Positions 28,674-28,939 of a DNA stretch of 62,562 nucleotides are shown piece after piece. Position 1 is the first letter of the stretch; every line of letters starts with the position of its first letter. The notes beneath the pieces are model-generated. The model worked only from the letters and a program-made list of their open reading frames with translations. It searched no databases and was not told the origin of the DNA. Position numbers and translations under genes: made by a program. This DNA is from a virus, in the UHGV virus genome UHGV-0106067. The stretch is one strand, 5' to 3'.

Positions 28674-28793
28674 TTTTCAACGCAAAAGAAGATAATCAAC
28701 CATGAACAAAAACGAACTTACACCTTGATTTTAAAACCATAAAGACGGTATTATCAGTCATATGGTGAACAACCAAAATCAATACGCAACAAT

Positions 28794-28817
28794 GTCCTCT
28801 TAGTTAAATGGATATAA
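28794..28817 (+). other. attP core: 24-nt copy of the 5' end of tRNA-Arg(CCU) argW
   Basis: GTCCTCTTAGTTAAATGGATATAA equals the acceptor 5' strand plus most of the D arm (D stem 5' strand, D loop, 3 of 4 nt of the D stem 3' strand) of argW as I remember it. It sits in an AT-rich arm region next to int. It is not a full tRNA. Confidence 0.6.
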
Positions 28818-28907
28818 TGAATACAAGCATTAACTAATTGATTTAAATACAGAAAGCACCAAAATAATCGTCATATCCGTACCCATTTATGTACACATCC
28901 CGTTAAG

Positions 28908-28935
28908 CATGCCCCGCACTTCCGTACGGGGCATG
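28908..28935 (-). terminator. 9-bp GC hairpin right after the last late gene (weak U tract)
   Basis: CATGCCCCG-10 nt-CGGGGCATG. The plus side is followed by TTCTTT. Confidence 0.4.
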
Positions 28936-28939
28936 TTCT

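Follow-up and report, generated by a model that had tools for sequence, protein, structure and literature searches.

Several elements that integrate at or beside argW, the E. coli gene for tRNA-Arg(CCU), have been described. For phage Φ24B (vB_EcoP_24B; Fogg 2007, 2011; Mohaisen 2020), integration has been reported to use a 24-bp central crossover site, a minimal phage attachment site (attP) of 350-427 bp and a bacterial site (attB) of 62-93 bp, and to be independent of integration host factor (IHF) (PMC7581858); its primary chromosomal site has been described as lying '250 bp upstream of intS' (PMC5247750). Tables of O157 and other E. coli that produce Shiga toxin (STEC) place Shiga toxin 2a (Stx2a) prophages between yfdC and argW (PMC8190617; PMC11688487), and the O157 tables list a Stx2a prophage at 'yfdC-argW' beside an Sp16-like element at 'argW-...' (PMC8190617). 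The element KplE1/CPS-53 recombines through a 16-nt core, CTGCAGGGGACACCAT, at the argW 3′ end, and its int, which is transcribed inward, has a promoter overlapping the att site (PMC2951348). Here we analyse the attP of the virus genome UHGV-0106067, a stretch of 62,562 nucleotides that we call the window and to whose full length all positions refer, in which a 24-nt copy of the argW 5′ end lies beside a divergent tyrosine integrase gene, int. The feature itself is already known: it is the Φ24B Int/attP module, which is also the 'argW' site of Stx phages. What we add is modest, namely the identification of the Φ24B core as argW nucleotides 1-24, limits on the position of the crossover, comparative evidence for a promoter and for arm-type sites, and a link to integration at the 5′ end of sbcB.

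The correspondence with Φ24B extends over the whole int side of the site. Nucleotides 1-244 of the Φ24B record match window positions 28590-28833 base for base; the exceptions are position −1 of the tRNA fragment (C versus T) and a single base in the short piece of P′ arm that the record includes. The two integrases are identical at 379 of 389 residues (97%) without gaps. The two phages thus share Int, P arm, core and chromosomal site, and they also share an int gene that is inverted relative to that of lambda, has its own promoter and is convergent with xis (promoter and start from PMC3064807). They differ in that no stx-like motif was found in the window and in other parts of the genome. In K-12 the first nucleotide of argW (+1) lies 236 bp upstream of the intS ATG, and it is therefore the same site as the Φ24B primary site. 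The word 'tRNA' was not found in the Φ24B literature that we examined, nor 'argW' in part of it; the tRNA reading comes from genome annotation and not from that literature. The same int and att are carried by the STEC Stx2a prophages 'at argW' (O157:H7; VT2phi_272, EC4115, PA8), which differ from the window phage in being Stx-converting; in VT2phi_272 the annotated 25-bp attL overlaps the start of tRNA-Arg. Our comparison joins two literatures, one on Φ24B, in which the locus is a '24-bp crossover site' placed 250 bp upstream of intS, the other on 'argW' as a typing locus for Stx2a prophages in O157 and other STEC. The portions of the STEC literature searched name the locus without discussing use of the tRNA 5′ end or the tRNA promoter, and our search for work on the argW promoter or on insertion upstream of argW returned nothing relevant, which is no proof that none exists. 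By overall relationship the window phage, which is lambdoid and short-tailed, belongs to the Stx-phage group: its int region is 96-98% identical to those of phi345, Stx2 phage 86 and others, and the best match to window 1-25000 is PhiR12_3 (from ECOR13), at 98.4% identity.

The argW fragment, GTCCTCTTAGTTAAATGGATATAA, occupies window positions 28794-28817 on the plus strand. It had been assigned to argW positions 1-24 in a first-pass annotation made from the sequence alone, and alignment to E. coli K-12 argW shows identity over the full 24 nt (locus L004, 2310-2333). It is present in a single copy in the window even when up to 3 mismatches are allowed, and it had no match in any of 100 shuffled sequences. 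In argW numbering, positions 1-7 are the acceptor 5′ strand (GTCCTCT), nucleotides 8-9 between acceptor and D stem are included, the D stem 5′ strand GTTA takes up 10-13, the 8-nt D loop AATGGATA 14-21 and the D stem 3′ strand TAAC 22-25, so that the fragment ends after three of the four nucleotides of that last strand, exactly the fold that had been proposed for it. No complete tRNA was detected anywhere in the window by ARAGORN, and no Rfam family was found at attP; the only match at E ≤ 1 was a chance, snoRNA-like one at 28981-29027. The identity between attP and attB in the window phage is 25 bp, as it includes the T at −1; beyond the core, position +25 is mismatched and the GA at +26/+27 again matches attB. 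The surrounding non-coding stretch is indeed AT-rich (35% G+C versus 49.5% for the window), while the length first given for it, 265 bp, becomes 341 bp with the revised int start described below. Inverted repeats TTAGTTAA and TTAACTAA, at 28800 and 28830, were considered as core-type sites and dropped, since a spacing of 22 nt does not suit such sites and the related phage 716R3 lacks the partner in its P′ arm.

To see how the site is used in lysogens, we queried 5426 complete E. coli genomes with window 28674-28939 and then with junction-specific sequences. Both halves of the query were present in 209 genomes, and in every one of them the query was split at the 24-mer, with the two halves overlapping there; a contiguous attP occurred in none of the 5426, the longest contiguous part being at most 56%. 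The attR junction (int, P arm and intact argW) was found in 209 genomes and the attL junction (yfdC, native argW upstream sequence, 24-mer and P′ arm) in 211, all of them chromosomal. At one attR (L001) the order is int on the minus strand, an intact annotated tRNA-Arg on the plus strand and then dsdC, that is, host genes, and at another (L089) the int-side half is likewise fused to tRNA-Arg; at an attL (L003) yfdC and native argW upstream sequence precede the P′-side half, which continues into the giant open reading frame (ORF) next to attP. Genome NZ_CP027340 holds both junctions, about 64 kb apart. A five-way alignment of attP, Φ24B, K-12 attB, attR and attL gives the textbook pattern of attP × attB yielding attL and attR. 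The 24-mer is the common core of all four sites, and from the split at the 24-mer together with the junction contexts it follows that the prophage sits between yfdC and argW, everything upstream of tRNA position −1 being replaced by phage DNA. The idea that the 24-mer is a chance likeness to argW or the remnant of a captured tRNA has nothing in its favour and deserves practically no credence, given its absence from shuffled sequence, the exact split in 209 of 209 lysogen genomes and the recombination demonstrated experimentally at the 24-bp site of the 97%-identical Φ24B system (PMC7581858).

These junctions agree with the first-pass proposal that attP carries the 5′ rather than the 3′ part of the tRNA, pointing away from an int on the opposite strand, and that integration takes place upstream of argW. 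A classical 3′-end-replacing element has the 3′ part of the tRNA in its attP and lies downstream of the gene; here nucleotides 1-24 are present and the prophage lies upstream. The arrangement of a 5′-end-replacing element, with the 5′ part of the target in attP and int adjacent and divergent, was found in the window and in 23 related loci. CPS-53 and its intS had been said to occupy the other side, and in K-12 they do lie downstream, at the argW 3′ end. The IntS elements of the KplE1/CPS-53, HK620 and Sf6 type resemble the window module in target gene, in the type of N-terminal arm-binding domain and in having a promoter that overlaps att, and they differ in using the 3′ end, with the element downstream of argW and int in the same orientation. 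Because the two kinds of element use opposite ends of argW, an Stx phage can share the gene with a CPS-53/Sp16-type element, which explains their co-occupancy; in VT2phi_272 the two integrase types stand on either side of one tRNA-Arg. Recombination at the 5′-distal part of a tRNA gene has been called 'considerably less frequent', with archaeal cases listed (PMC6563490), and the OD and SIT (divergent or int-first) arrangements make up less than 8% of 1273 integrase-tRNA pairs (PMC2951348). The window module resembles the reversed-orientation elements of the former source and the 'OD' arrangement of Panis et al. 2010 in this rare orientation.

Two attL/attR sets allowed us to narrow the crossover. 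In a lysogen of vB_EcoS-716R3, whose Int is 84% identical to the window Int, tRNA position 5 is the host T at attL (GTCCTCT) and the phage C at attR (GTCCCCT); since position 5 is phage-derived at attR, the exchange is placed 3′ of it. In window-type lysogens position 25 is T, as in the phage, at attL and C, as in the host, at attR, and the exchange is therefore placed 5′ of position 25. If both integrases act alike, the crossover would fall within tRNA positions 6-24. Inside this interval the D stem strands GTTA and TAAC form a dyad around the 8-nt loop. The sublocation classes of Williams (2002), as summarised in PMC1635311, are anticodon loop, T loop and 3′ end. A conserved tRNA segment is targeted here too, and the D-arm dyad resembles their stem-loop dyads; the differences are that the shared block is the 5′ part and that the D-arm region is not among the three classes (PMC1635311). 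The D arm may thus be a parallel to the stem-loop sublocations.

The window Int belongs to the same architectural class as the P4 and CP4-57 integrases. It matches PF13356 (Arm-DNA-bind_3, DUF4102; E = 4e-17) and PF00589 (Phage_integrase; E = 2.9e-17), both above the curated cut-offs, and is 100% identical to E. coli protein cluster P0001. Residues R237, K264, H326, R329, H352 and Y361 are invariant across 19 family members, and from their motif positions we take them to be the catalytic R..K..HxxR..H..Y. The 'P4-type' label given earlier suits this domain architecture, and the Φ24B record likewise notes a P4 integrase domain. IntS resembles the window Int in the N-terminal arm-binding domain only, with 29% identity over 93 amino acids, and BLASTP detected no similarity between the catalytic regions; the label therefore rests on domain architecture. 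The mechanically called int ORF encodes 414 amino acids and begins at a GTG at 28673. For Φ24B int, rapid amplification of cDNA 5′ ends (5′-RACE) showed transcription to begin within the 1245-bp ORF, 46 bp from its GTG, and expression was possible from a TTG start (PMC3064807). We therefore placed the window int start, by homology to Φ24B and these data, at the TTG whose position we confirmed as 28596-28598, which makes the intergenic gap 341 bp and not 265.

We next sampled the integrase family, proceeding from a 19-member alignment to 80 loci with one genome per species; the related loci were taken with 3-kb flanks and cover the int-side junction only. Wherever Int identity was at least 65% and enough flank was available, a tRNA-Arg(CCT) lay divergent from int (23 of 23 loci), with 173-196 bp between the int start and the tRNA 5′ end. 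Among the genera are Erwinia, Enterobacter, Phytobacter, Pantoea, Brenneria, Xenorhabdus and Providencia, as well as Tatumella, Salmonella, Morganella, Proteus, Rosenbergiella and Rouxiella. We then checked 26 tRNAs, comprising those of the 23 loci, the G1/2 and 716R3 attR copies and, as a reference, the unoccupied K-12 argW. All 26 acceptor stems are fully paired, without a single mismatch among 170 Watson-Crick and 12 G-U pairs, and the D stems are intact, which argues for the hybrid argW being kept functional.

The most likely source of expression for this hybrid gene is a conserved element in the P arm, which we propose to be a phage-supplied promoter. When the window and 23 related Enterobacterales elements were compared (24 distinct elements), a sigma-70-type footprint, TTGAnn-18-TAnnAT, stood out amid otherwise unalignable sequence between int and the tRNA, the other conserved block being three TGTAC repeats and GGCAAGTGAAC beside the int start. 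Within the footprint no element departs from the TTG, G(−14), T(−12), A(−11) or T(−7), and the spacer is 18 nt in 24 of 24 elements; the −10 hexamer ends 39 nt before the tRNA +1 in 22 elements, and in the other two the distance is 38 and 29 nt. This pattern of fixed and free positions is that of promoters and unlike that of a generic protein site, and it is for this reason that we propose a promoter of argW. In one relative (L024) a deletion of about 20 bp alters the distance from the element to the arm repeats and leaves the distance to the tRNA as it was.

Our explanation of the site as a whole runs as follows. Int recombines the 24/25-bp core with the first 24 nt of chromosomal argW, with the crossover in positions 6-24, and since the core is the gene's 5′ part, the prophage lands between yfdC and argW. 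At attR, argW is rebuilt from a phage 5′ end and the host remainder. The whole native upstream sequence, with promoter and leader, is carried off by about 60 kb to attL, where it faces only the 24-nt stub, the P′ arm and a strong hairpin. The P-arm promoter would most likely transcribe argW, and the phage would encode a leader of about 33 nt for RNase P to remove. The same-orientation TGTAC repeats of both arms (28611-28970) would be the likely arm-type sites of Int. We regard this account, a Φ24B-type attP whose core recombines with the argW 5′ end and whose P-arm promoter then drives argW, as likely to be correct. Several points weigh against its promoter part. The window element matches the consensus at 9 of 12 positions and its 18-nt spacer is long; it lies inside the minimal attP and so might be architectural or bind a protein; and the assignment derives from comparison and consensus matching. 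Moreover, the native promoter was not located by our consensus scan; we note only a TATACT ending 12 nt before +1. The first-pass claim that integration replaces the native promoter and leader thus holds in that all sequence upstream of −1 is displaced, while the 'promoter replacement' that it implies is deduced from this geometry.

The best-surviving alternative accepts the site and its integration as described and takes the conserved element for recombination architecture, at which Int, Xis or a host factor would bind or bend the DNA. In lysogens argW would then be silent, or dependent on read-through such as an early-left transcript in the xis direction, antisense to int, which would be tolerable if argW is dispensable. 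The element's place within the 350-427 bp minimal attP (PMC7581858) agrees with this view, as does its moderate promoter match across loci (7-9 of 12), and other P-arm motifs (GAAC at 28663, 28704 and 28767) are also conserved with no obvious role. The invariant positions, however, are exactly those important for sigma-70, the variable ones are those that vary in real promoters, and the spacer is always 18 nt; the deletion in L024 shifted the distance to the arm repeats and not that to the tRNA; and perfect acceptor stems in 25 of 25 attR tRNAs argue for selection on a functional, and hence expressed, tRNA. On this evidence we consider an architectural role unlikely.

A further alternative keeps the promoter and makes its main product a phage RNA of about 175 nt, which would start at about 28761, pass through the stub and the P′ arm and end at the hairpin at 28906-28937, acting as a small RNA or shielding the giant ORF from antisense transcription, with argW expression as a by-product. 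Promoter, stub, and strong hairpin followed by UUCUUU do stand in series on the plus strand, and by our own reading of the sequence a hairpin and T-run also follow the P′ arm of the diverged phage 716R3. Yet the 191-nt stretch as a whole folds only moderately better than its shuffles (z = −2.5) and contains no Rfam family, the P′ arms of the window phage and 716R3 differ except for one TGTACACA motif, and the distance that is kept constant is that from the promoter to the tRNA +1. We judge this reading to be very improbable and retain the phage-supplied argW promoter as our preferred one. With regard to the GAAC(A) motif, its copies at 28663, 28704 and 28767 on the plus strand show partial conservation (1.5-1.75 bits) in the set of 24 elements; the motif is distinct from both the promoter hexamers and the TGTAC repeats, and Xis or a host factor could bind there.

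Beyond the tRNA-targeting branch, integrases that are 40-63% identical to the window Int and have enough flank all stand next to a full-length sbcB, from which they diverge at a distance of about 180-200 bp on its upstream side. Their hosts are Enterobacterales, Orbaceae, Vibrionaceae, Shewanella, Paraglaciecola and Parendozoicomonas. Triple (T/G)GTAC repeats stand beside the int start in these relatives too, and the Orbaceae integrases, 61-63% identical to the window Int, share the TGTAC arm motif yet target sbcB. For Stx2c phage 1717 a 13-bp duplication, TTTCACGATTACG, is annotated in the first sbcB codons, and in its lysogen the SbcB N-terminus is phage-encoded. The 1717-type Int thus represents a sister branch (about 56% identity) which resembles the window module in having int divergent from, and about 180 bp from, the target start, in its (T/G)GTAC triple repeats and in replacing the target's 5′ end and upstream region; it differs in that the target is protein-coding and the phage provides N-terminal codons, not a tRNA 5′ strand. 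Among the sbcB-type loci the intergenic alignment is too diverged to show or exclude a conserved promoter, the alignable parts being limited to arm repeats and sbcB codons. On the simplest reading of these sequences, 5′-end replacement would be ancestral to the Int family and an Enterobacterales branch would have moved from sbcB to argW with its geometry kept, which would explain why this tRNA-targeting Int departs from the usual 3′-end rule. A bolder version, which we put forward tentatively and think doubtful, is that of a dedicated 5′-end-replacing lineage that passed from sbcB to argW and whose phage promoter frees the rare-codon tRNA-Arg(CCU) from its native control, changing AGG decoding in lysogens, possibly to the benefit of the phage.

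The codon usage of the window bears on this last idea. In its ORFs of at least 150 amino acids, AGG and AGA occur at 6.0 and 7.6 per 1000 codons, respectively, and the phage has no tRNA genes as judged by ARAGORN. AGG usage in E. coli is roughly 1-2 per 1000 codons, and many Stx2 phages, unlike the window phage, carry tRNA genes. Whether lysogeny alters expression of the AGG-decoding tRNA-Arg(CCU) is, in our view, the most interesting question raised by the locus. If the promoter reading is true, about 4% of complete E. coli genomes (209/5426) express an AGG-decoding tRNA from phage DNA, with a possible effect on translation of AGG-rich horizontally acquired genes. In practical terms, prophage-boundary tools restricted to 3′ tRNA fragments will misplace the ends of such elements. 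The basic picture of tyrosine-integrase recombination is unchanged.

The two arms share further features. The motif TGTAC[ATG]C occurs in five copies, all in one orientation, between 28611 and 28970, against 20 copies on both strands of the whole window; the TGTAC columns are invariant (2 bits) across the 24 elements, and the diverged phage 716R3 has a CTGTACACA in its P′ arm. The repeats are likely candidates for arm-type sites, at which we infer that Int binds. Two of them lie between the hexamers of the int promoter, which are probably TTGCTA and CAGAAT. As the motifs span 28611-28970, the functional attP is probably larger than the 28674-28939 initially delimited. The outermost repeat is 183 bp from the core, so that, if the arms are symmetric, a 350-bp attP would lose it and a 427-bp attP would keep it. 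The repeat positions would thus fit the published Φ24B limits, with the reservation that the equal arms are assumed from the wording of that paper and not from its figure. On the far side of the P′ arm, folding revealed a hairpin of −21.1 kcal/mol (z = −5.5; none of 200 shuffles as good). In attL the sequence natively upstream of argW is followed by the 24-nt stub, then by about 90 nt of P′ arm and finally by this hairpin, which may act as a terminator that stops transcription from reaching the giant ORF antisense; a point against this role is that a simple terminator scan of 28400-29100 did not call the hairpin, which was found by folding only. The giant ORF, first described as the last virion gene, is by its domains a polyvalent protein, and no virion gene has been demonstrated there. 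It also has a weak DarB-like PHROG match, and its last ~30 bp, with the outermost TGTAC repeat, appear to be part of attP. The features of the site and the loci of the sbcB-type branch are collected in Table 1.

Table 1. Features at and around attP in the window, and the related loci next to sbcB
Feature	Position or locus	Strand	Basis or remark
Xis-like helix-turn-helix gene	27278..27445	+	ORF list; convergent with int, overlaps int 3′ end
int, tyrosine integrase, 389 amino acids, TTG start	27429..28598	-	Pfam domains; 97% identity to Φ24B Int
P-arm repeats TGTACACA (28611), TGTACTCA (28635), TGTACGCA (28646)	28611..28653	+	Candidate arm-type Int sites; overlap int promoter
Probable int promoter TTGCTA-18-CAGAAT	28631..28660	-	Φ24B start equivalent ~28627; ATTCTGTA, GGCAAGTGAAC blocks conserved
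Sigma-70-type promoter-like element TTGATT-18-TATTAT	28725..28754	+	Consensus scan; conserved; 39 nt before argW +1 after integration
attP common core, T + argW nt 1-24	28793..28817	+	Identity with attB, attL and attR; same core in Φ24B
P′-arm repeats TGTACACA (28890), TGTACTCG (28963, inside end of giant ORF)	28890..28970	+	Motif count
Strong hairpin, then TTCTTT on plus strand	28906..28937		Between P′ arm and stop codon of giant ORF
Polyvalent protein gene, 2783 amino acids	28940..37291	-	Pfam LPD38, LPD5, LPD1, MuF_C; phrog_616; borders attP
sbcB-type loci	L031, L033-L043, L045-L048, L050, L052-L056		
sbcB-type loci, further	L060-L065, L067-L070, L072-L075, L077-L086; L092 894-3678		

Some smaller observations concern the tRNA and the surroundings of the integrases. 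E. coli argW natively has a U5-G68 wobble in its acceptor stem, and most other Enterobacterales have C5-G68 (L004 2310-2384; L087 2297-2371). The 716R3 prophage turns position 5 of the E. coli gene into C, and the only 5′-strand variation across taxa is C or T opposite G; repeated integration and excision could exchange tRNA 5′ ends between phages and hosts. At the position homologous to the xis-like gene, the lysogen annotation has a helix-turn-helix regulator and Φ24B has xis. About 0.5 kb beyond this gene, on the side away from attP, the window has an ORF of 248 amino acids with a DUF4145 domain (26076-26822, minus strand), which may be an accessory (moron) gene. In the vB_EcoS-716R3 prophage, of the same int family and at argW, a gene for a retron-type reverse transcriptase lies within a few kb of the attL end (L090 2835-4319). 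The argW prophage of strain 2015C-3121 has antitoxin genes of the HigA and ParD families a few kb from int (L089 7545-8523), and the window lacks them in the corresponding part. Finally, enterobacterial-type int genes with tRNA-Arg or sbcB also appear in records of Martelella alba, Pararhizobium sp. (a metagenome-assembled genome) and Chryseobacterium sp. (L011, L022 and L056); these copies are probably contaminating or mis-binned contigs.

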